DNA of 64,000 nucleotides from a bacterium (GTDB lineage Bacteria; DRYD01): positions 59,450 through 123,449 of the forward strand of contig JAUQQQ010000006.1 of assembly GCA_030549815.1 (NCBI GenBank), given 5' to 3'. A model generated the notes under the pieces. It did not search any database, was not told where the DNA came from, and saw only the letters and a program-made list of their open reading frames with translations. Both the position numbers and the translations under genes were made by a program. Below, in pieces: positions 1-7,495 of the stretch. Each line of letters opens with the position of its first letter. The stretch's first letter is position 1.

Positions 1-295
1 TCTCAACTTTCTCATCTAAACTCTTCATATCTCTCTTGATGTTTTCTACATCTTGTTTTAAAACGTTAACATCTTGTTTTAAGATATTAACATCTTGTTT
101 TAAGATATTAACATCTTGTTTTAAGATATTAACATCTTGTTTTAAGATATTAACATCTTGTTTTAAGATATTAACATCTTGTTTTAAAACGTTAACATCT
201 TGTTTTAAATTTTGAATCTCTTCCTCTATTTTATCTAATTTATCTAATTTTTTCTTTATTTCACTTAATTCTTGCATGATTTGCTCGATATTCAC
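1..295 (-). CDS. Coiled-coil protein with tandem KQDVN(I/V)L heptads; runs off the window start (partial)
   Basis: Manual translation from GTG at 295 after AGGAAGGTG: MNIEQIMQELSEIKKKLDKLDKIEEEIQNL(KQDVN[IV]L)x7 KQDVENIKRDMKSLDEKVE..., open to base 1. Not in the ORF track. Confidence 0.8.
   Translation of the reverse strand, partial: MNIEQIMQELSEIKKKLDKLDKIEEEIQNLKQDVNVLKQDVNILKQDVNILKQDVNILKQDVNILKQDVNILKQDVNVLKQDVENIKRDMKSLDEKVE
48..208. repeat. 21-bp tandem repeat (ACATCTTGTTTTAAGATATTA), 7 full copies plus 1 partial
   Basis: Unit starts at 48, 69, 90, 111, 132, 153, 174 and 195. Five central copies are identical; the copies at 48 and 174 end in AAACGTTA. Confidence 0.97.
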
Positions 296-475
296 ATAAA
301 TCACCTTCCTATATAATTTTTTGTTTTGCAAATACTTCCATTTCCCATAATTAATTTTCTATGAATTACTTATATTCTCCTTTTGGTAAAAATTTTTTAT
401 ATAAAATTTTTTTGAAGGGGGAAATAAAATGGGAATATAATTTTAAAATAGGGTTTAATAATAGAAAAAGTTGAT

Positions 476-2254
476 ATGAGCTCGATAAGTTTTGGAAGGT
501 TTTATTACCATCAGTATTTCATAAATAATGAAAAAACCTTCCTAGCAAAAATTGACAACACTTTACGTGAAATAAAAAACTTAATAAATACTGAGATCAA
601 AGAATTATCTGGAATTATTCATGAGATAAAAAGTTATTTTGATTATGAAAAGGAAGATTTCAAAAGAAAGCATACTCTCGATTTTTTCAATAGTCATAAT
701 TACGACTCATGGTATAATTCAAAATTGAAAAGTGTCAATGAAATAGGAATAAAAATAAAAAGACTAATAAAAGATTTATCGTTAGAAGGAATTATTCCTA
801 ATAGCAAACAAAACTGCCAAAAATTAATTAAATTACTCCAAGAGTATCAATCAGATAGTCTTAAATTTACAAAAACTATTGAGTCATTGCAAAGCAAGAT
901 GGAAAAATTTGAATTACAAGAAAGAATGAACAATATAAATGAAAAGATTAAAAGTTTACAGATAAAAATTAATAATCCTTATATTTACGAATTTCTTAAT
1001 TTGTTAAGTTTTGCTTTCAAAGAAGTAACCCAGGAATTTGATCCTTTTTCTTTTGACTATAACCAAAAGAAAGACAAGAAATTAAAAAGAGAATTATCTA
1101 ATATTGAAAATTTCCTTGAAAATTTTGAACAGAGAATCACTAATTTTGAAAAATTACCGCTGGATAAAAAAGAAATGATATACAAACTTATTCAATTCTT
1201 TGAAAAATTTGGTGAACCAATTTATGAATACAAAGTTTTACAAAATTTTGTAAATAAACTTAAGAATGAAAAGTATGGGATTGAGATTGAAGAGCAATTT
1301 GCTTTAATAAAATCGCAACTTACTGAAAAAACTATTAAAATAAACACACAAGAAATTCCAGAAAAATCAAAAGAAGATGAATTAGGAATTAAAGTAAAAA
1401 ATTTAAAACGAAAAATAAAGGAAAAATTCCCACAGTTTTACGATGAAATTGAAAATAAATATTCAAATATTAAGGATTTAAAATTGCTCCTTGATTCTTT
1501 AGAGTTTGAATTTTTGAAATTAAAAAAACAGATTGTGGATGACTTTATTTATAGGCAAGAAATTGAAAATATCAAGAAAGAATTAATGGAGTTTTTCAAA
1601 TCATTTTCAAATTTTCCTGAAATTGGTAAACCTGTTTTTCTTGAATTCAAAACAAATTTTGAAGACATTATGAAGTCCATCGATCATTATTTGGCAAAGA
1701 AAAATGTGGAAGAAAAAGATTATATGTTAATAAAAAATAATGCTGATGAATTTATTCAAAAACTTGAAAGATTCTTATATCACTTAGAAAAAAAGAAAAA
1801 ATCACAAGAATTTAAAAACATTATAAAAGAAAAACTTAATGCAATTGGATACAGTGTGATCTTTGTTAATGATAAGGATGTGAGCTTTCTGGATACACCC
1901 TTTGATTTTGTTTATAAAATAATGTTGAAAATCGAGGATGATATTATTAAAGTCCAGTTTGTTAGAATTCTTGATGATAGTGAGACCTTGACGGAATACG
2001 AAAAACAAAAAGATATATACTATGCTGAAAGATGGTGCAATGATTATAAGAATTTATTAAATTTATTAGAAAAAAACGGGATTGTTATAAAACCTGAAAA
2101 CATCATAGAACCCAATCAAAGAATGAATTATTTATATATTTCTGAGCTTCCAGAATACCTTAGAAAACAGGCTTATGAATACTTTAAATCCTATCAAGGT
2201 AAGAAAACTAAAAGTATATCTGAACAGCAAAAATTTCAAGAAAAAATAGAATAA
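476..2254 (+). CDS. Long coiled-coil hypothetical protein with a C-terminal globular domain (ERWCxD motif)
   Basis: 592-aa K/E/I/L-rich ORF; C-terminus ...LNAIGYSV...KVQFVR...KDIYYAERWCNDYKNLLNLLEKNGI; 15 nt upstream of the kinase. Confidence 0.8.
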   Translation: MSSISFGRFYYHQYFINNEKTFLAKIDNTLREIKNLINTEIKELSGIIHEIKSYFDYEKEDFKRKHTLDFFNSHNYDSWYNSKLKSVNEIGIKIKRLIKDLSLEGIIPNSKQNCQKLIKLLQEYQSDSLKFTKTIESLQSKMEKFELQERMNNINEKIKSLQIKINNPYIYEFLNLLSFAFKEVTQEFDPFSFDYNQKKDKKLKRELSNIENFLENFEQRITNFEKLPLDKKEMIYKLIQFFEKFGEPIYEYKVLQNFVNKLKNEKYGIEIEEQFALIKSQLTEKTIKINTQEIPEKSKEDELGIKVKNLKRKIKEKFPQFYDEIENKYSNIKDLKLLLDSLEFEFLKLKKQIVDDFIYRQEIENIKKELMEFFKSFSNFPEIGKPVFLEFKTNFEDIMKSIDHYLAKKNVEEKDYMLIKNNADEFIQKLERFLYHLEKKKKSQEFKNIIKEKLNAIGYSVIFVNDKDVSFLDTPFDFVYKIMLKIEDDIIKVQFVRILDDSETLTEYEKQKDIYYAERWCNDYKNLLNLLEKNGIVIKPENIIEPNQRMNYLYISELPEYLRKQAYEYFKSYQGKKTKSISEQQKFQEKIE

Positions 2255-2269
2255 TAGGGGAGAAAGAGG

Positions 2270-5200
2270 ATGGAGGAAAATGAAAAGGAAGAAAAAAATC
2301 CGGAAGAGACAACAACATTAGAGCAAACTGTATTAGAAAAAACTATTCATCAATCCAAGATATTACAAAAAGAAGAACGAACAACTAAAAACAAAGAAGA
2401 GAGTGAGTTAGAAGGAGATTTTCATGAATACAAAATTGAAAAACAATTGGATTTTTTAGGAGCAGAAGCTGATTACTTTCTTTTAAGTAAAAATAACCAG
2501 TATTTTTTCTTAAAATATTATCGCAGGAATTATAAGCCAAGAAATTTTGAAAAAATACTTCAACTATCAAAAGAATTTCCGCAGCATATCATCCAAATTG
2601 TAGATTATGGGGAGCATAAAGGAAGGTTTTTTGAAATTCAGGAATACGCCGAATGTAACCTTAAAGATTTCTGTATTAAATATGAAGTTCAAAAGAATAT
2701 CGAGTTGATAGAAAAAATAATTAGTGAAATTACGGATGCCCTTTCTGCTCTACATAAAAGTAATATAATTCATAGGGATATAAAGCCACAGAATATCCTT
2801 GTTAGAAAGATGGATCCATTGGATCTTGTTTTGACAGATTTTGGGATTTCCTCTTTTGTAGAAGAAGATGTATCCAAAGTTTTGACAGAGAATGTTAGGG
2901 GAACTTTCCTTTACAGTGCTCCCGAGACATTTTCGGGATTTTTTGGAAAAGAAGCAGATTATTGGTCATTTGGAATGGTATTACTTGAAATAATAACAGG
3001 TCAAAATCCTTTTGCTTTACTTCCGCGGCAAGTAATAATGAATAACTTATTTACCCGTGAGGTTCCCATACCTGAAGATATTGATGAAATTGTTTATGGA
3101 CAGAAAAAAACAAATAGAAAATCTTTGAAAAAATTATTAATGGGACTACTTACAAGAGATCCAAGCTTAAGATGGAAGGATAAAGAAATATATACGTGGT
3201 TGAAAGGAGATGAAAATATAGAAGTTTTCTATGCTTTAAATACTGAAGATGAAAAAGTTAAAGAATACATAAATGAAGGAATAAAAAATGTGCAGAGTAT
3301 AAAAGAATGGGTAAAGTTAGGGATAACACCAAAATATGCAAAAGTTTTTGATAAAAAATCAATAAAACCACAAGAAATAGAAAAATTAATTTCCAAGAAT
3401 ATAAGCCTTGATGAAATAATAGTTTTTGTTGAAAAGGGTTATGAGGTAAATCAAATAATAGAAATATTGGATAATGGAATAAGTTTAAAAGAATATCTCG
3501 TTTGGCTTGAAAAGGGTTTTACTTTACAAGAAATTATAAAATACAAGAATAGTAATCTTAGTTTAGATGAGGCATTGGAATGGAAAAAACAATTGGCAAA
3601 TTTTAACCAAAGCTTATTGAAAATACCTGAGAATGAGATTATAGAATGGATAAAAAATGGATTTAATGAAGAGGAGATAATTGAATGGAAACAGACGAAT
3701 CTTAAACCTGAAATTGCAAAGGAATGGAAAAAATTAAGATTGTCTGCTATTGAAACAATTAAAATAAAACAAAAAGGTATTTCATTGGCAGAAGTTATAG
3801 AATGGAAGGAAGAATTTGAAAAGAACAATTTAAAATTTATTGTCAGTGATTTCTTAGAATGGCGTCAAGTTAAGGTTTCTTTCCAGAATGCTATAAAATT
3901 GATAAAAAGCAAAGTTCCTCCAAATATTGCACAGGATTTATTGGCAAGAGGCTTAAATGTTCAAGATATTATACAATTGGTAAATGAAAATATTCCATTG
4001 GTTTCATTAAAAAAATGGATAGATATGGGTTTTAGTTTGAATGATATTCCATATCTAATAAAGGGTAATCTGAGGGAAGAACAAATTCAGAGAATATTGG
4101 GAATGGGAATAAAAAAGGAATCCATTTTACAGTTAGTAAAAGGAAATATTTCATTAGATACTATAGAAGAAATTATCAATCAAGGTTTTACTGTTAAGGA
4201 TTTAGAGGATTTTCTACAATTACTTATTTTTGGTGTTTCCGTAAAGGAAATAGTAGAATGGAAGAAAAAAGGGTTTAGTGGATATGATGCTTTGGGATGG
4301 AAGAAACATGGATTTACTCCACAGGAAGCAGGGAAATGGAAAAATGAAAAATTTAATCCTTCAACGGCAAGATTATTAAAGGAGAATGGATTGTCAGTGG
4401 AGGAAGCAAAAGAATGGATATCTTGTGGATTTAATATTGATGAAATAGTGGAACTAAAGAGAAGAAATTTTTCACTGTTGGAAGCTGTTAAATTAAGAAA
4501 AGAATTATCAGATGCTGGAATATCTATAGAGGAAAAATTTGAATTGGAGATGTATGGTTTTACTATCTCTGAGGCAAAGAAATGGAAGGATGTAGGATTT
4601 AGTATTACAGAAGCTTATCAATGGAAAGAAATGAGTTTTGGACCTATTGATGCAATGCAGTGGAAAAAAATAGGCTTTGACCCTAATGAATCGATAAAGT
4701 GGAAAAGAGCAGGATTTACTCCTAATGAAGCAATACAGTGGATAAAGAAAGATTTTTCCTTAGAGCAAGCAAAAAAATGGAAAGAAAAAGGTTTTAATCC
4801 TGTAGATGCAAGAAAGCAAGAGTTGGAAATGTGGATATCACAAGGATTTACTAAGGATGAAATAAGTGAATGGATAAAGTGTGGATTTGACGTAATTAAT
4901 GCTAAACTTTGGAAGGAAAAGGGATTTACAGCAAGGGGAGCTATGGAATGGAAAAATAATGGGTTTTATTTAGAGGAAGCTTTTGAATGGTCTGGATTAA
5001 AGAATAATAATAATGCAGCAAGTGGATGCCTATTATTACTTTTATCTTTATTATTTCCACCTCTTTTGATTTTTTTCATTTTTTATTCTATTTCTTATCC
5101 TTTTAATCTTGATCTCTTAATTGGATTTTCCCCTTTGGAAGCAAAAGAATGGAAAAAATATGGATTCAATTGGGAACAAGCAGCAAAACTGCAAAAATCA

Positions 5201-5395
5201 AATGTTAGTCTTGAGGAAGCTGTAAAATGGAAAAATAATGGATTTTCTGTGGAAGAAACAATAAAATATAAAACGAAAGGTTATGATATAACCCGAGCAA
5301 GGAAAGAAAAAAAACTGTTGACAATTGTTTGGGTGGTTGTTTTTCTCTTATATTTCTGTTTTTTATATTTCTTTTGCAAATTTCTTGGTTGGTAA
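2270..5395 (+). CDS. Hanks-type Ser/Thr protein kinase with W-x3-GF repeats and C-terminal membrane segments
   Basis: HRDIKPQN, DFG, YSAPE and DYWSFG motifs; about 680 aa of EAxxWKxxGF-like repeats; two hydrophobic segments near the C-terminus. Confidence 0.92.
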   Translation: MEENEKEEKNPEETTTLEQTVLEKTIHQSKILQKEERTTKNKEESELEGDFHEYKIEKQLDFLGAEADYFLLSKNNQYFFLKYYRRNYKPRNFEKILQLSKEFPQHIIQIVDYGEHKGRFFEIQEYAECNLKDFCIKYEVQKNIELIEKIISEITDALSALHKSNIIHRDIKPQNILVRKMDPLDLVLTDFGISSFVEEDVSKVLTENVRGTFLYSAPETFSGFFGKEADYWSFGMVLLEIITGQNPFALLPRQVIMNNLFTREVPIPEDIDEIVYGQKKTNRKSLKKLLMGLLTRDPSLRWKDKEIYTWLKGDENIEVFYALNTEDEKVKEYINEGIKNVQSIKEWVKLGITPKYAKVFDKKSIKPQEIEKLISKNISLDEIIVFVEKGYEVNQIIEILDNGISLKEYLVWLEKGFTLQEIIKYKNSNLSLDEALEWKKQLANFNQSLLKIPENEIIEWIKNGFNEEEIIEWKQTNLKPEIAKEWKKLRLSAIETIKIKQKGISLAEVIEWKEEFEKNNLKFIVSDFLEWRQVKVSFQNAIKLIKSKVPPNIAQDLLARGLNVQDIIQLVNENIPLVSLKKWIDMGFSLNDIPYLIKGNLREEQIQRILGMGIKKESILQLVKGNISLDTIEEIINQGFTVKDLEDFLQLLIFGVSVKEIVEWKKKGFSGYDALGWKKHGFTPQEAGKWKNEKFNPSTARLLKENGLSVEEAKEWISCGFNIDEIVELKRRNFSLLEAVKLRKELSDAGISIEEKFELEMYGFTISEAKKWKDVGFSITEAYQWKEMSFGPIDAMQWKKIGFDPNESIKWKRAGFTPNEAIQWIKKDFSLEQAKKWKEKGFNPVDARKQELEMWISQGFTKDEISEWIKCGFDVINAKLWKEKGFTARGAMEWKNNGFYLEEAFEWSGLKNNNNAASGCLLLLLSLLFPPLLIFFIFYSISYPFNLDLLIGFSPLEAKEWKKYGFNWEQAAKLQKSNVSLEEAVKWKNNGFSVEETIKYKTKGYDITRARKEKKLLTIVWVVVFLLYFCFLYFFCKFLGW

Positions 5396-5509
5396 TGACG
5401 ATTAATAATAACCAAAATTAGGTTTTTTAAGTGGTAAAAAATTCGAGGAAGGAAAGGGAGGCTTTTTTGTAAAATAATAATTAAGAAGTTAATTTTTAGA
5501 GGGGTAATC

Positions 5510-7495
5510 ATGAGTGAAGTCAATTTTGAAAAAACTAAATACCTTAAATACATCGATTACCAAACTATAAAAGATTTAAACTATCAACAAATTTCTGTTT
5601 TATCTCAGGAAATAAGAGATTACATAACGGAGGTTATATATCACAACGGGGGACACTACGGGAGTAATTTAGGAGTTGTTGAACTTACTATCTCTCTTTT
5701 AAGAAATTTTAATCCCCCAACAGATAAAATAATCTTTGATACGTCACATCAATCTTATGTTTATAAAATCTTAACTGACAGGAAAGAAAAATTTAAGACT
5801 TTAAGAACATTTGGAGGGATTTCAGGGTTTTCAAAAATAAAAGAAAGCCAATTTGATCATTTTGGTGCGGGACATGCAGGCACAGGACTCTCTGCTGCTT
5901 TAGGATATGCAAAAGCCAGAGATTTAATGAATTTACAGCATGAAGTTGTATCTATCATTGGAGATGCAGCCCTAACTTGTGGTGTTACTTTTGAAGCTAT
6001 AAACAATATTGGACAATACCCAACAAAAATTATCATTGTTCTAAATGACAATGAATATTCTATAGCAAGGAATGTTGGAGCTATATCAATGTACCTAAAA
6101 AAATTAAGAAATAATCCTTTGGTTTTGAAAGTAGAGGAAAAAATTGACGAAGTATTAACCAAAATGCCTGTTAATAGCGTAATAAAAGAATGGATTAGAG
6201 ATACTAAGAATTGGGTTGAAGAAGGTTTTACTAAGTTGGTTTCCCCTTCACTTGTCGGAATTATCTTTGAGGAATTTGGAATTCAGTATATTGGACCGAT
6301 AGACGGACACGATGTTAAAATGTTAGACGAAGTATTCATGTTTGCTAAATCTTTAAGTAAGCCTGTTATAATTCATGCTATAACCCAAAAGGGTAAAGGT
6401 AATAGTGAAGCAGAAAGCCATTCTGAAAGGATGCATGGAGTTGCCAAAGGAAAAGTAAAACCAGGAAACTTTATTTATTTTAGCACCGATGAAGGGATGA
6501 AAGTGGATGATTTTACAAAAAGCAATAATAAAACTTACACTGAGGTATTTGGAGAATCAATCGTTGAATTGGCAAGAAGAGATGAAAAAATTGTTGCTAT
6601 AACTGCTGCTATGCCATCGGGAACAGGATTAGTAAATTTTTCTAAAATTTTCCCAGATAGATTTTTTGATGTTGGTATAGCTGAGGAACATGCTGTTATA
6701 TTTGCTTGTGGATTAGCTTTACAAGGATTAAAACCTGTCGTTGCTATATATTCAACTTTCTTACAAAGGGCTTTTGATATGTTAATTCATGATGTCGCTT
6801 TGCAAAAAATCCCAATTCTTTTTGTTTTAGATAGGGCGGGAATTGTTGGTGAGGACGGACCTACTCATCATGGAGTTTTTGACATATCTTACTTAAGGAT
6901 GATCCCAAATGTTCAAATTTTTGCTCCATCTAATGAAGTTGAATTAAGAAACATTTTATATACAGCACTCAATAAACTTGAAAAACCAACTTTCATAAGA
7001 TATCCACGGGATTTTGTCGAAGGATTAGAAATCCAAGATTTTCAAAAAATCGATTTATACAAGTGGCAAAAAATTTATGAAACACAGGAAAATAAGTCTT
7101 ACTCTAAAAAAGTAATGATTTTATCAACGGGAAGAATGAGGAGATTTATTAATTCTATTTCCAAAATTTTAGAAGAAAATGATGTGAATTTGAAAGTTTT
7201 CAATTGTATTTCAATTAAACCATTGGATGAAAATGTTTTAATGGATGCTAAGGATTTTGATTTAATCGTTAGTTTAGAAGACAATATATTAGCTGGGGGA
7301 TTTGGAAGTTATATTTTGGAATTCTTAAACGATAACGGAATATTTAAGAAAGTTTTGAGATTTGGATGGAATGATGAATTTATTGAACACGGTGCAATGA
7401 ATGTTTTATTTAATCATTATGGGTTAGAACCTGTAAAAATATCGGAGAAAATATTGGCTGAATTTAATCAGGCTGTTATTATAAAAAGTGGATAA
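5510..7495 (+). CDS. dxs: 1-deoxy-D-xylulose-5-phosphate synthase
   Basis: GGHYGSNLGVVEL, GHAGT, GDAALTCG..EAINN, YIGPIDGH, DVGIAEEHAV, DRAGIVGEDGPTHHG. Confidence 0.97.
   Translation: MSEVNFEKTKYLKYIDYQTIKDLNYQQISVLSQEIRDYITEVIYHNGGHYGSNLGVVELTISLLRNFNPPTDKIIFDTSHQSYVYKILTDRKEKFKTLRTFGGISGFSKIKESQFDHFGAGHAGTGLSAALGYAKARDLMNLQHEVVSIIGDAALTCGVTFEAINNIGQYPTKIIIVLNDNEYSIARNVGAISMYLKKLRNNPLVLKVEEKIDEVLTKMPVNSVIKEWIRDTKNWVEEGFTKLVSPSLVGIIFEEFGIQYIGPIDGHDVKMLDEVFMFAKSLSKPVIIHAITQKGKGNSEAESHSERMHGVAKGKVKPGNFIYFSTDEGMKVDDFTKSNNKTYTEVFGESIVELARRDEKIVAITAAMPSGTGLVNFSKIFPDRFFDVGIAEEHAVIFACGLALQGLKPVVAIYSTFLQRAFDMLIHDVALQKIPILFVLDRAGIVGEDGPTHHGVFDISYLRMIPNVQIFAPSNEVELRNILYTALNKLEKPTFIRYPRDFVEGLEIQDFQKIDLYKWQKIYETQENKSYSKKVMILSTGRMRRFINSISKILEENDVNLKVFNCISIKPLDENVLMDAKDFDLIVSLEDNILAGGFGSYILEFLNDNGIFKKVLRFGWNDEFIEHGAMNVLFNHYGLEPVKISEKILAEFNQAVIIKSG

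Follow-up and report, generated by a model that had tools for sequence, protein, structure and literature searches.

Two adjacent genes, here called A and K, very probably belong to a conserved multi-gene phospho-signalling system, which in its usual arrangement in other genomes comprises six genes. They were found in the window, the whole 64,000-nucleotide stretch of bacterial DNA that was analysed. In our best reading, an undescribed conflict system gated by phosphorylation has A and K as its sensor and partner arm; to the joint claim, that both genes are part of the conserved system and that this system has a conflict role, we assign a probability of about 0.5. A full-text search of the main texts available found no description of the gene set, none of the libraries searched has a name for it, and PMC7159879 (eLife 2020) describes a different system. 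If the reading is true, A-K points to a widespread six-gene system without a name, with a distribution over Aquificota-, Thermotogota-, Calescibacterium-, Leptospiraceae-, and Bacillota-type genomes and a reduced form in Rhizobium plasmids. It would combine a eukaryote-like switch of kinase, phosphatase, and FHA protein with a ClpB-like unfoldase and an orphan NrdG-like radical-SAM enzyme, three elements that are not known to act together, and would make the six-gene set a candidate new defence system.

Genes A and K and their products

The window derives from a hot-spring bacterium, and A and K are neighbours on the + strand. The features of the locus are the following:

2..331, minus strand: heptad-repeat ORF upstream of A
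412..441, + strand: promoter-like candidate, TTGAAG-18 nt-TATAAT, 35 nt upstream of the A ATG
476..2254, + strand: gene A, helical/coiled-coil ORF of 592 aa
485..505, + strand: N-terminal beta-strand of A (aa 4-10, DSSP E4-10)
1844..2155, + strand: conserved C-terminal alpha/beta domain of A (aa ~457-560; invariant G458-Y459, D513, W520-C521, P546)
2257..2269, + strand: Shine-Dalgarno-like purine-rich run, GGGGAGAAAGAGG, in the A-K spacer
2270..5395, + strand: gene K, GxEAD-type Hanks kinase of 1041 aa with repeat array and membrane anchors
2423..3205, + strand: kinase domain of K (aa ~52-312; beta3 Lys82)
2459..2473, + strand: GAEAD loop of K (aa 64-68)
3287..5299, + strand: about 45 repeats of 13 aa, GFsxxEAxxWKkx, interrupted at aa 917-946
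5018..5107, + strand: first hydrophobic segment of K (aa 917-946)
5315..5392, + strand: C-terminal hydrophobic tail anchor of K (aa 1016-1041)
5510..7495: dxs, downstream of K (DXP_synthase_N E 2e-97)

The original prediction had given the ORF sizes, the 15-nt gap, the flanking unrelated gene and dxs, the intact kinase motifs and atypical LGAEAD loop of K, and a GY...QFVR...ERWC motif at the end of A, and all of these were recovered as described, the ORF coordinates being exact. In the spacer (2255..2269), no terminator-like site was found between both genes, and the sequence suggests that A and K probably form one transcription unit. The promoter-like site upstream of A has 10 of 12 consensus matches; it is considered only a candidate because the region contains 23 such sites, which is not above the shuffled mean of 28.7. 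The GC3 of A and K corresponds to the genome median (51st percentile) and gives no sign of recent transfer.

K matched the Pfam family PF00069 (Pkinase) with 116.2 bits (gathering score 31.7; E 2.2e-33) over aa 99-307, a match that spans only profile positions 54-257 of 263. Its HRD (168-170), DFG (190-192), and APE (217-219) motifs, as well as K82, are invariant in alignment A4. No GxGxxG, the canonical glycine loop, was found before the HRD motif; G-A-E-A-D is present instead, within LGAEAD at aa 63-68. The GxEAD loop was present in 24 of 24 operon-linked kinases covering that position and in all 12 further homologues fetched, so it represents a clade feature and not decay, and it can serve as a clade marker for these kinases. 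A search with the kinase region yielded 539 proteins at E<=1e-5, and the wider GxEAD homologues carry Sel1, ankyrin, TPR, WD40, FGE-sulfatase, or PQQ domains at their C-termini. In the tail of K, identity autocorrelation was raised at lags 13 and 26 (0.21 and 0.20, respectively; about 0.09 at other lags), and 13-aa repeats of this type were also detected in operon-linked kinases of other phyla. The sequence suggests that the segment at aa 917-946, with the five repeats and the anchor that follow it, represents a duplication of the C-terminal end. K homologues likewise terminate in a hydrophobic tail, and the repeat tail of K is on the cytoplasmic side of the predicted C-terminal membrane anchor. 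A weak likeness of the repeats to the DotG/IcmE repeat region (E 3.6e-9) was read as repeat composition and not as functional homology, and a match to the Pfam 'Decapeptide' family was below its cut-off.

The C-terminal end of A reads ...AIGYSV...VQFVRILDD...YEKQKD...ERWCNDY...LLEKNGIVI. Using the C-terminal 163 aa as query, a word-based search matched A alone, whereas an exhaustive HMMER search of 1.84 billion sequences gave a family of 72 cluster representatives (E<=1e-3), of which 23 also reach E<=1e-10; no family for A was found in Pfam, NCBIfam, or PADLOC. All 20 aligned members share the same residues at the G-Y, D, W-C, P, and Y positions, and Ser2 is nearly invariant (alignment A1). 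The conserved part of A is a globular domain with invariant residues and not the coiled coil. Given the invariance of these positions and the constancy of the GxEAD loop, the motif features of A and K exceed chance. No A relatives were found in phage records or viral contigs.

The AlphaFold model of full-length A had a pLDDT of 79.4, and the C-terminal domain alone 85.7. In a structural comparison, the KA1 domain of Chk1 matched with Z 8.6 and an rmsd of 2.5 A over 87 of 93 residues for the full model. When the domain alone was compared (VIA-align), Chk1 KA1 scored Z 7.3 and the AMPK alpha C-terminal domain Z 7.2, with no row reaching Z 8, and KA1-type structures (Chk1, AMPK alpha, METTL16, TUT1, MARK1, MARK3, SAD-B, SOS2, and Kcc4) made up 13 of the best 31 rows. 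The KA1 and AMPK matches cover model residues 1..539 and 5..535, and these matches suggest that the N-terminal strand of A completes the C-terminal sheet. Foldseek returned nothing from the PDB at E<=1e-3 for either the full or the domain model, and no KA1 family was among the Pfam matches at E<=0.1. As modelled, the N-terminal strand and C-terminal domain of A would resemble the eukaryotic KA1 fold (beta-alpha-beta-beta-beta-alpha) modestly (Z 7.3-8.6), and A may be a bacterial, trans-encoded counterpart of that domain.

Other likenesses of A were also considered. A PD-(D/E)xK nuclease reading came from scattered weak Foldseek rows (probability <0.3) and was dropped because the acidic and lysine positions vary within the family, and a likeness to PvuII in a PDB sequence search (alignment A3; a 25-residue stretch, E 1.5e-4) was taken as spurious. 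A weak Foldseek row named Crl (probability 0.91, TM 0.47). The ESM Atlas gave feature matches below 0.9, all without names, and its structural rows, with a TM by query of 0.65-0.71, pointed to proteins without names that are 428-557 aa long; both are leads only.

A recurrent six-gene set in other genomes

Beside A-family and GxEAD kinase genes, the usual operon encodes a PP2C protein, an ATPase designated AAA*, an NrdG-like radical-SAM protein, and a zinc-ribbon-FHA protein, with domain matches to PP2C, AAA_2 plus ClpB_D2-small, Fer4_12/Radical_SAM, and zinc ribbon plus FHA, respectively. The original prediction had named an AAA ATPase, described as Ycf46-like, and a 4Fe-4S protein as partners. 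AAA_2 and Fer4_12/Radical_SAM proteins do occur in these operons, the ATPase being of the ClpB-NBD2 type; the DUF1257 and DUF2997 partners that it also named were found neither in the window's genome nor among 40 small ORFs of system loci (E<=0.01). AAA* has about 600 aa and combines a degenerate N-terminal AAA-like domain with a ClpB-NBD2-like (AAA_2) domain that is predicted to be active. A glycyl-radical motif was sought in AAA* and none was found, a conserved GGRGIGN occupying the ClpB sensor-2 position. In PADLOC, A and the FHA protein are without a model, and the other components match at the domain level only.

The operon is carried by Thermocrinis, Calescibacterium, Fervidobacterium, Leptospiraceae, and an Aristaeella plasmid. 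This plasmid, from Aristaeella lactis and 44 kb in size, has two kinase genes, both with GEAD, together with genes for FHA, radical-SAM, AAA*, PP2C, and an A-family protein (E 3.4e-8 with the A3 profile). In Rhizobium plasmids, AAA* and radical-SAM genes adjoin a gene for a 2086-aa protein with a kinase domain. Outside the window's order, a sample of about 390 genomes from across the domain yielded the N-domain of AAA* in only 3, all of which have AAA*, radical-SAM, and kinase together.

Loci were scanned with the 13-sequence alignment A2, alignment A1 being too divergent, and A-family loci were clustered at 60% identity. Of the 14 A-family clusters that do not belong to the window's family, 13 have a kinase within 9 kb and nine have one within 300 nt; the single cluster without a kinase starts 98 nt before a contig end. 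The proposed link between GxEAD kinases and WC-motif coiled-coil proteins was thereby confirmed. Within the window's family, no kinase was found within 300 nt at any of 11 other A-family loci, and the A-K pairing is the only one in its lineage, which counts against the main reading. A kinase or repeat ORF accompanied the A-family gene at each of five genome loci, at four of them within 300 nt. Among 52 metagenome loci, many of them on incomplete contigs, an A-family ORF was found at 51, a kinase at 40, AAA* at 36, PP2C at 35, FHA at 31, and radical-SAM at 29.

Of 21 representative loci, 8 have defence or mobile neighbours; these 8 come from at least five A-family clusters and are an anecdotal raw count. 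The neighbours include Cas6, Cas8b, Piwi/Argonaute, DarT-Macro, Mrr, PLD-SNF2, PIN with HTH-IrrE, and transposases; other system loci are flanked by housekeeping genes for aconitase, a MiaB-like protein, PBP1, and DnaK. Because of these plasmid and defence-island contexts, defence against phages or mobile elements is the most likely role, although a conflict or defence function of the system as such has only about an even chance of being correct.

Parts in the window's genome and possible roles

The window's genome encodes AAA*, radical-SAM, and FHA proteins in intact open frames with conserved motifs; their genes are located off the A-K contig and are not adjacent to one another:

contig C5, 85502-87532: AAA* (E 1.9e-206 to a Calescibacterium protein)
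contig C14, 5435-6049: radical-SAM gene (E 1.3e-58)
contig C12, 28438-28896: zinc-ribbon-FHA gene

Partner genes had been described as absent here, which holds for the two DUF families and not for the AAA ATPase and the 4Fe-4S protein; because these lie on other contigs, 'relocated' fits and 'absent' does not. The central inference is supported: the pair represents a phosphorylation module, reduced or relocated, from a signalling or defence system that is not yet characterised. The PP2C and zinc-ribbon-FHA partners, the KA1-like fold, and the cytoplasmic side of the repeat tail had not been foreseen. For PP2C, the window's genome gave no PF13672 match, and phmmer --max and tblastn gave none better than E 0.19; as the genome is 90.3% complete, absence is not proven. 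NrdD was not found there (no NRDD match), and the NrdG-like activase is without a glycyl-radical enzyme partner in this genome.

In the proposed mechanism, K would be held at the inner membrane face, with its 13-aa repeat array as a sensing or scaffolding surface, and A would bind K as a trans-acting KA1-like regulator, serve as its substrate, or both. Once activated, K would phosphorylate threonines in A, in the FHA protein, or in its own chain. This mark would be read by the zinc-ribbon-FHA protein and coupled to the AAA*/radical-SAM pair as output, PP2C resetting the switch. For the window's genome, where PP2C was not found, the scheme would leave the switch without reset. The order of these steps is tentative and probably not right throughout. 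A more specific version, an immune effector based on protein-radical chemistry gated by threonine phosphorylation, is a long shot. The NrdG-like activase would then have one of the system's own proteins as its target. The candidate is the A family, whose only invariant residues include Gly-Tyr and Trp-Cys pairs that recall the Gly and Cys radical sites of glycyl-radical enzymes; AAA* would unfold or present the substrate, and K, the KA1-like module of A, FHA, and PP2C would set the timing. If the main reading is right, the six-gene system would also provide a function for orphan NrdG-like genes in genomes without class III ribonucleotide reductase.

The conflict reading has to be weighed against a housekeeping one, in which the system would serve envelope or cell-cycle signalling of thermophilic lineages, A would be a membrane-associated scaffold comparable to the DivIVA/Wag31-type targets of PknA/B, PstP, and FhaA/B in Actinobacteria, phosphorylation by K and remodelling by the Clp-like ATPase would control assembly of A-family scaffolds, and plasmid copies would be secondary. 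The best NCBIfam match of the FHA protein is FhaB/FipA. Nine of ten genomes in the window's family have AAA*, the single sister-family genome gives a weaker match, and the scattered parts of this lineage sit among core genes (glyQ, comF-like genes, rpoC). Five of six genomes of the genus keep a second module, in which a two-ring ClpB-like ATPase of 702 aa is accompanied by an FHA protein of 99 aa and by an A paralogue that has a transmembrane helix at its N-terminus. In the window's own family the system looks vertical rather than mobile, the GC3 of A and K is genome-typical, and no obvious toxic or nuclease effector domain was found among the system components. However, a core function would be less rare than AAA* is outside the order, and would not readily account for copies on plasmids and beside Cas, Argonaute, DarT, Mrr, and transposase genes, for the strongly varying C-terminal sensor domains of the kinase clade, or for a radical-SAM enzyme, which has no explained role in a scaffold system. 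K also lacks a close orthologue in nine related genomes, the best being 42-49% identical, and a related strain appears to be without A-K at the dxs site: in one hot-spring run, a contig of depth 15.4 matches dxs onward from 5446 while its upstream 2415 nt do not map to 35..5445, and low-depth contigs of the same run keep A-K unchanged. Taken together, we consider the housekeeping explanation rather unlikely.

That A and K are an autonomous unit, with the KA1-like A regulating K in trans and no further need of the scattered AAA*, radical-SAM, and FHA genes, seems distinctly improbable to us; such a unit could be a remnant, or its targets could have changed, for instance to the genome's other kinases. 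Only A and K are adjacent in this genome, the remaining parts lying on four other contigs and PP2C not being found; the genome has 10 Pkinase matches, the AAA* type is common to the whole family while K is species-specific, and eukaryotic KA1 domains are known to autoinhibit their own kinases without further partners. On the other hand, K is the sole GxEAD kinase among five ORFs with an HRD..K..N motif in the genome, such kinases adjoin AAA* and radical-SAM genes in every other lineage examined, the other parts retain intact frames and motifs, and scattered genes can still co-function. Coiled-coil and repeat sequences draw spurious similarity, A has no library family, and it was the only match of the word-based search, as would be expected if A were a generic structural coiled coil that happens to neighbour an ordinary membrane Ser/Thr kinase with low-complexity repeats. 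This extremely improbable explanation is already contradicted by the family search and the linkage counts, since conservation in A falls on the globular domain and close adjacency to a GxEAD kinase recurs in nine of 14 independent clusters and in several phyla.

Relation to known systems

Like A, the KA1 and related C-terminal domains of eukaryotic kinases (Chk1, MARK, SAD, AMPK alpha, SOS2/CIPK) are associated with Ser/Thr kinases. They function in autoinhibition, as in MARK1, Chk1, and SAD, in acidic lipid binding, and, in CIPKs, in PP2C docking. The domain of A differs in being encoded in trans, in being split by about 440 helical/coiled-coil residues, and in having its own invariant G-Y, D, and W-C, with no sequence match to any Pfam family.

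The kinase-based anti-phage PADLOC entries PD-T4-6, MADS mad6, Mokosh MkoA, and Stk2 match K with E 9e-36 to 1e-14 but cover the generic kinase core only (PD-T4-6: E 1.6e-31, aa 106-275, profile 70-238 of 311), and A, FHA, and AAA*/radical-SAM have no matching system models. The radical-SAM protein is closest to NrdG (TIGR02491 E 3.3e-30, CxxxCxxC motif, ~200 aa), although the Calescibacterium orthologue, with 105.1 bits, remains under the TIGR02491 cut-off of 126.1, and its gene adjoins AAA* (in the window's genome it is scattered) and not a glycyl-radical enzyme gene.

Control of type VI secretion involves the kinase PpkA, the PP2C phosphatase PppA, Fha1, and the ClpB-like ATPase ClpV. The six-gene system likewise clusters a membrane Hanks kinase, PP2C, an FHA reader, and a ClpB-family AAA_2 ATPase, and the common logic would be that FHA reads phospho-threonine and gates an ATPase-driven machine. 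Unlike type VI control, it adds the NrdG-like radical-SAM protein and the A family; AAA* reaches only 226.2 bits against ClpV/TssH (NCBIfam TIGR03345, cut-off 884.95), its first domain being degenerate, and no type VI structural genes were present among 126 neighbour proteins scanned at system loci. In Esr, a threat-sensing system of Actinomycetales with a defensive role, a kinase/phosphatase pair sets the phosphorylation of an FHA output that often has zinc fingers (bioRxiv 10.64898/2026.09.08.750141). As described there, Esr is without a ClpB-like ATPase, a radical-SAM protein, and an A-family protein, all of which the six-gene system has, while both share repeat-rich, diversified sensor parts (bioRxiv 10.64898/2026.09.08.750141).

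Gene pair A-K and its two proteins

Two neighbouring open reading frames were found on the forward strand, exactly where the original prediction had placed them:

476..2254, + strand, gene A, ORF of 592 aa encoding a coiled-coil protein
2270..5395, + strand, gene K, ORF of 1041 aa encoding a Hanks-type kinase

The spacer of 15 nt between them carries a purine-rich, ribosome-binding-like run, and no terminator-like site was found between the two genes. A promoter-like site lies at 412-441, in AT-rich DNA where the frequency of such sites is not above chance. The gene dxs lies downstream of K, and an ORF with heptad repeats lies upstream of A on the opposite strand. This ORF (2..331, minus strand; in full C10:59307-59780 of the window's genome, 157 aa) is oriented divergently to A and consists mostly of the perfect 7-aa tandem repeat LKQDVNI/V in about 9 copies, in which Pfam found only coiled-coil-type noise. 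Just before the window start, at C10:52757-59271, five tandem paralogous genes for membrane proteins of ~240 aa with similar N-termini (MINDIIINELENIRK.../MNEIIIYE...) are followed by ORFs of 792 and 248 aa, all on the minus strand; these genes look like a variable family beside the A-K insertion.

K matches the Pkinase profile with an E value of 2.2e-33, the match beginning only at profile position 54. The N-lobe is atypical and its glycine loop was rightly read from the sequence, with LGAEAD at residues 63-68; the HRD, DFG and APE motifs are intact. A search with the kinase region yielded 539 proteins at E<=1e-5, and G-x-E-[A/S/C]-D (the GxEAD motif) replaces GxGxxG in each of the 24 operon-linked kinases whose sequence reaches this position and in 12 of 12 further homologues fetched. 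C-terminal to their kinase domain, these homologues have 13-aa repeats, Sel1, ankyrin, TPR, WD40, PQQ propeller or FGE-sulfatase domains. About 45 copies of the 13-aa repeat GFsxxEAxxWKkx make up the tail of K itself (autocorrelation of 0.21 at a lag of 13), and in the predicted topology K is held in the membrane by C-terminal hydrophobic segments at residues 917-946 and 1016-1041. The stretch from the kinase domain to the repeats contains no transmembrane segment, which places the array on the cytoplasmic side, together with the kinase, so the sensor tail originally proposed for K would not be external. The end of the protein (window 5018..5392, residues 917-1041) looks duplicated: beyond the main array come a hydrophobic segment, five further repeats of 13 aa and then another hydrophobic tail. 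Homologues close with one tail anchor.

In Pfam, NCBIfam and PADLOC, no model matched protein A above its cut-off. Its last 163 residues, used in an exhaustive HMMER search, recovered 72 cluster representatives at E<=1e-3 (23 even reached E<=1e-10), nearly all 400-630 aa long and matching at the C-terminus. The members in the full-length alignment (n=34) have a common plan: they start with 'MSS...', continue with a long helical part and close with a C-terminal domain in which G458, Y480, D513 and C521 are invariant. When 20 diverse C-terminal domains were compared, the residues without any variation were G-Y, D, W-C, L, P and Y. An N-terminal transmembrane helix is present in some members, among them a paralogue in the window's genome (C9:13235-14671). 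The AlphaFold model of full-length A (pLDDT 79.4, pTM 0.63) has a strand at residues 4-10, is helical from 12 to 456 and ends in an alpha/beta domain, which reached a pLDDT of 85.7 when modelled alone. Foldseek gave nothing significant with the A models. With the domain alone, an exhaustive VIA-align search placed KA1-type rows on top, namely Chk1 KA1 (Z 7.3) and AMPK alpha C-terminal domains (Z 7.2, 6.8, 6.5, 6.3), followed lower down by METTL16 and TUT1 KA1, MARK1, MARK3, SAD-B, SOS2 and Kcc4, so that 13 of the 31 top rows were of KA1 type. The full model matched Chk1 KA1 at Z 8.6 over 87 of 93 residues at 2.5 A, and the match spans model residues 1..539, which suggests that the fold takes its first strand from the N-terminal one and that the long helical region is an insertion. 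These Z values fall in the range that VIA-align itself calls middling, and we treat the domain as KA1-like, a supported lead from modelling that stops short of KA1 membership.

Conserved gene set and its distribution

The A-family profile located five genome loci (Thermocrinis, Ca. Calescibacterium nevadense, a Leptospiraceae MAG and two contigs of a Fervidobacterium MAG) in which a kinase that shares the GxEAD domain and the 13-aa repeats is next to, or not far from, an A-family gene. The Calescibacterium and Leptospiraceae loci have four further genes in a row, encoding a PP2C phosphatase, an ATPase, a radical-SAM protein and a zinc-ribbon-FHA protein. The ATPase, here called AAA*, has ~600 aa with AAA_2 and ClpB_D2-small behind a 300-aa N-domain; the radical-SAM protein (~200 aa, Fer4_12/Radical_SAM) is most like NrdG. 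The open frames of these two overlap in Calescibacterium, and the two genes adjoin in most loci examined. Across 52 metagenome loci, many of whose contigs stop within the cluster, an A-family ORF was present in 51, a kinase/repeat ORF in 40, AAA* in 36, PP2C in 35, FHA in 31 and the radical-SAM gene in 29. To allow for the many near-duplicate contigs, A-family ORFs with 380 aa or more (68 in all) were grouped at 60% identity into 23 clusters; outside the window's family, 13 of 14 have a kinase within 9 kb (9 of 14 within 300 nt), and the exception begins 98 nt from the end of its contig. Gene order differs by lineage, for example A-K-PP2C-AAA*-rSAM-FHA, K-A-PP2C-AAA*-rSAM-FHA or K-A-AAA*-rSAM-FHA-PP2C, where rSAM is the radical-SAM gene.

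In a domain-wide sample, the AAA* N-domain occurred in 13 of 401 genomes, ten in the window's order and three elsewhere. All three of the latter have AAA*, radical-SAM and kinase together, and in one of them an A-family gene is next to a GGEAD kinase. Plasmids also carry full-length AAA*. A 44-kb plasmid of Aristaeella lactis (Bacillota) encodes, in this order, a kinase, a 430-aa hypothetical protein (E 3.4e-8 with A3, the family-A profile), an FHA protein, a 4Fe-4S protein, an AAA ATPase, a phosphatase, a DUF6273 protein and another kinase; GEAD is found in the two kinases alike. On Rhizobium megaplasmids, AAA* and the radical-SAM gene adjoin the gene for a 2086-aa kinase-domain protein, and an A-family gene is missing. 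The locus on Rhizobium leguminosarum pRLgr12_2 (L103 7992-16733) has AAA*, a 4Fe-4S protein and then the 2086-aa protein (E 1.5e-28 to K), adjoins a thermonuclease gene and a transposase fragment, and is a reduced variant of the system. Taken together, the plasmid and sampled-genome loci indicate that AAA*, radical-SAM and kinase co-occur in every lineage examined, with the GxEAD loop confirmed in one of the three sampled genomes outside the order and in Aristaeella; A, FHA and PP2C are frequent companions. AAA* homologues, named only generically in the sources, include proteins of Pseudothermotoga, Caldicellulosiruptor, Nitrospirae and Synergistaceae.

Parts of the system in the window's genome and family

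The window's genome (1.59 Mb, 23 contigs, 90.3% complete) contains parts of the system, yet scattered over other contigs:

C5:85502-87532, AAA*
C14:5435-6049, radical-SAM gene, flanked on one side by glyQ, an ordinary kinase of 321 aa lying beyond it
C12:28438-28896, zinc-ribbon-FHA gene

No PP2C, NrdD, DUF1257 or DUF2997 was found in this genome at its 90.3% completeness. Three genes from AAA*, an ORF (C5:82223-83470) runs into X translation from masked or undetermined bases. A second module, C9:10834-14671 (locus L144:835-4669), has three genes with overlapping stops and starts, encoding a 702-aa two-ring ClpB-like ATPase that lacks an N or M domain, a 99-aa FHA protein and a 478-aa transmembrane paralogue of A; this trio is kept in 5 of 6 genomes of the genus.

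AAA* is found in 9 of 10 genomes of the family, and at its 11 other A-family loci no kinase lies within 300 nt. K is the sole GxEAD kinase of its genome, and no close orthologue of it was found in the family, the best matches there, in the other genus, being 42-49% identical. At C1:12851-17189, directly after an ABC-type ATPase gene, two near-identical tandem kinase genes (719 and 724 aa, the first ~40 residues the same) lack the GxEAD loop. In one hot-spring run, an abundant contig matches dxs onward from 5446, and its 2415 nt upstream are not on 35..5445; minor contigs of the same run have A-K unchanged. One side of the joint spans only 34 nt, with uncertain content between, so these contigs give a hint, short of proof, that A-K is present in some strains and absent from others.

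Possible role and comparison with known systems

Our functional statements are drawn from domain content and gene context; demonstrated are the domain identities, the conserved linkage and catalytic residues, the dispersal in the window's genome and the contexts. K would act as a kinase anchored by its tail, with the repeat array serving for sensing or as a scaffold, and A may bind it via the KA1-like module, being its regulator, its substrate or both. The zinc-ribbon-FHA protein would read phospho-threonine marks and PP2C would erase them, with the always-paired AAA*/radical-SAM couple as the putative output. The second domain of AAA* is a complete ClpB-NBD2 and its N-domain looks like a degenerate AAA domain, a make-up suggesting that AAA* probably threads or remodels a protein. 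The radical-SAM enzyme has no glycyl-radical enzyme partner in the window's genome. The boldest reading, protein-radical chemistry gated by threonine phosphorylation, appears improbable.

We give a role of the system in conflict a probability of about one half. Its rare and patchy occurrence outside the window's order (3 of about 390 sampled genomes), its carriage on plasmids and the hypervariable sensor domains of the kinase clade speak for such a role, as does the species-specific K with its possible strain-level absence. Defence- or mobile-type neighbours (Cas6, Cas8b, Argonaute, DarT-Macro, Mrr, PLD-SNF2, PIN with HTH-IrrE, ParA/DnaB plasmid-type genes and transposases) were found in 8 of 21 representative loci, a raw count that carries no background rate. 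The flank scan covered 69 of 89 ORFs, omitting duplicates of near-identical loci and ORFs scanned before, and a later scan added matches. In different lineages such genes lie directly beside the six-gene operon:

L011 8863-10572, Cas8b (TM1802)
L063 5490-7577, Piwi-domain Argonaute
L061 5375-6571, DarT-Macro fusion
L073 2001-2741 and 13686-14603, Cas6 with Mrr

Against this stand the housekeeping neighbours at other loci, the near-universal AAA* in the window's family and the scattering of parts among core genes. Moreover, there is no compositional anomaly (the GC3 of A and K equals the genome median), no toxic effector is recognisable among the components, no PADLOC system model matches, and phage and viral collections yielded no match. 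A cell-biological role fixed in the lineage, an alternative to conflict, seems to us rather unlikely.

Pfam, NCBIfam (release 20.0) and PADLOC (2.0.0) contain no model that names the gene set, and searches of the accessible full texts found no description of it. In type VI secretion, a kinase, a PP2C and an FHA protein control a ClpB-family ATPase, which is the nearest known logic to the six-gene set; that control is not known to involve the AAA*/radical-SAM core or the A family. The recently described Esr threat-sensing pathway is also close in logic (bioRxiv 10.64898/2026.09.08.750141): there, an FHA output protein is switched between states by a kinase together with a phosphatase. As described in the preprint, this pathway has neither the AAA*/radical-SAM core nor the A family. 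From this closest known logic, and with no earlier description found, we rate the set as a Ser/Thr-phosphorylation-gated multi-gene system of new make-up, a known kind in a new form.
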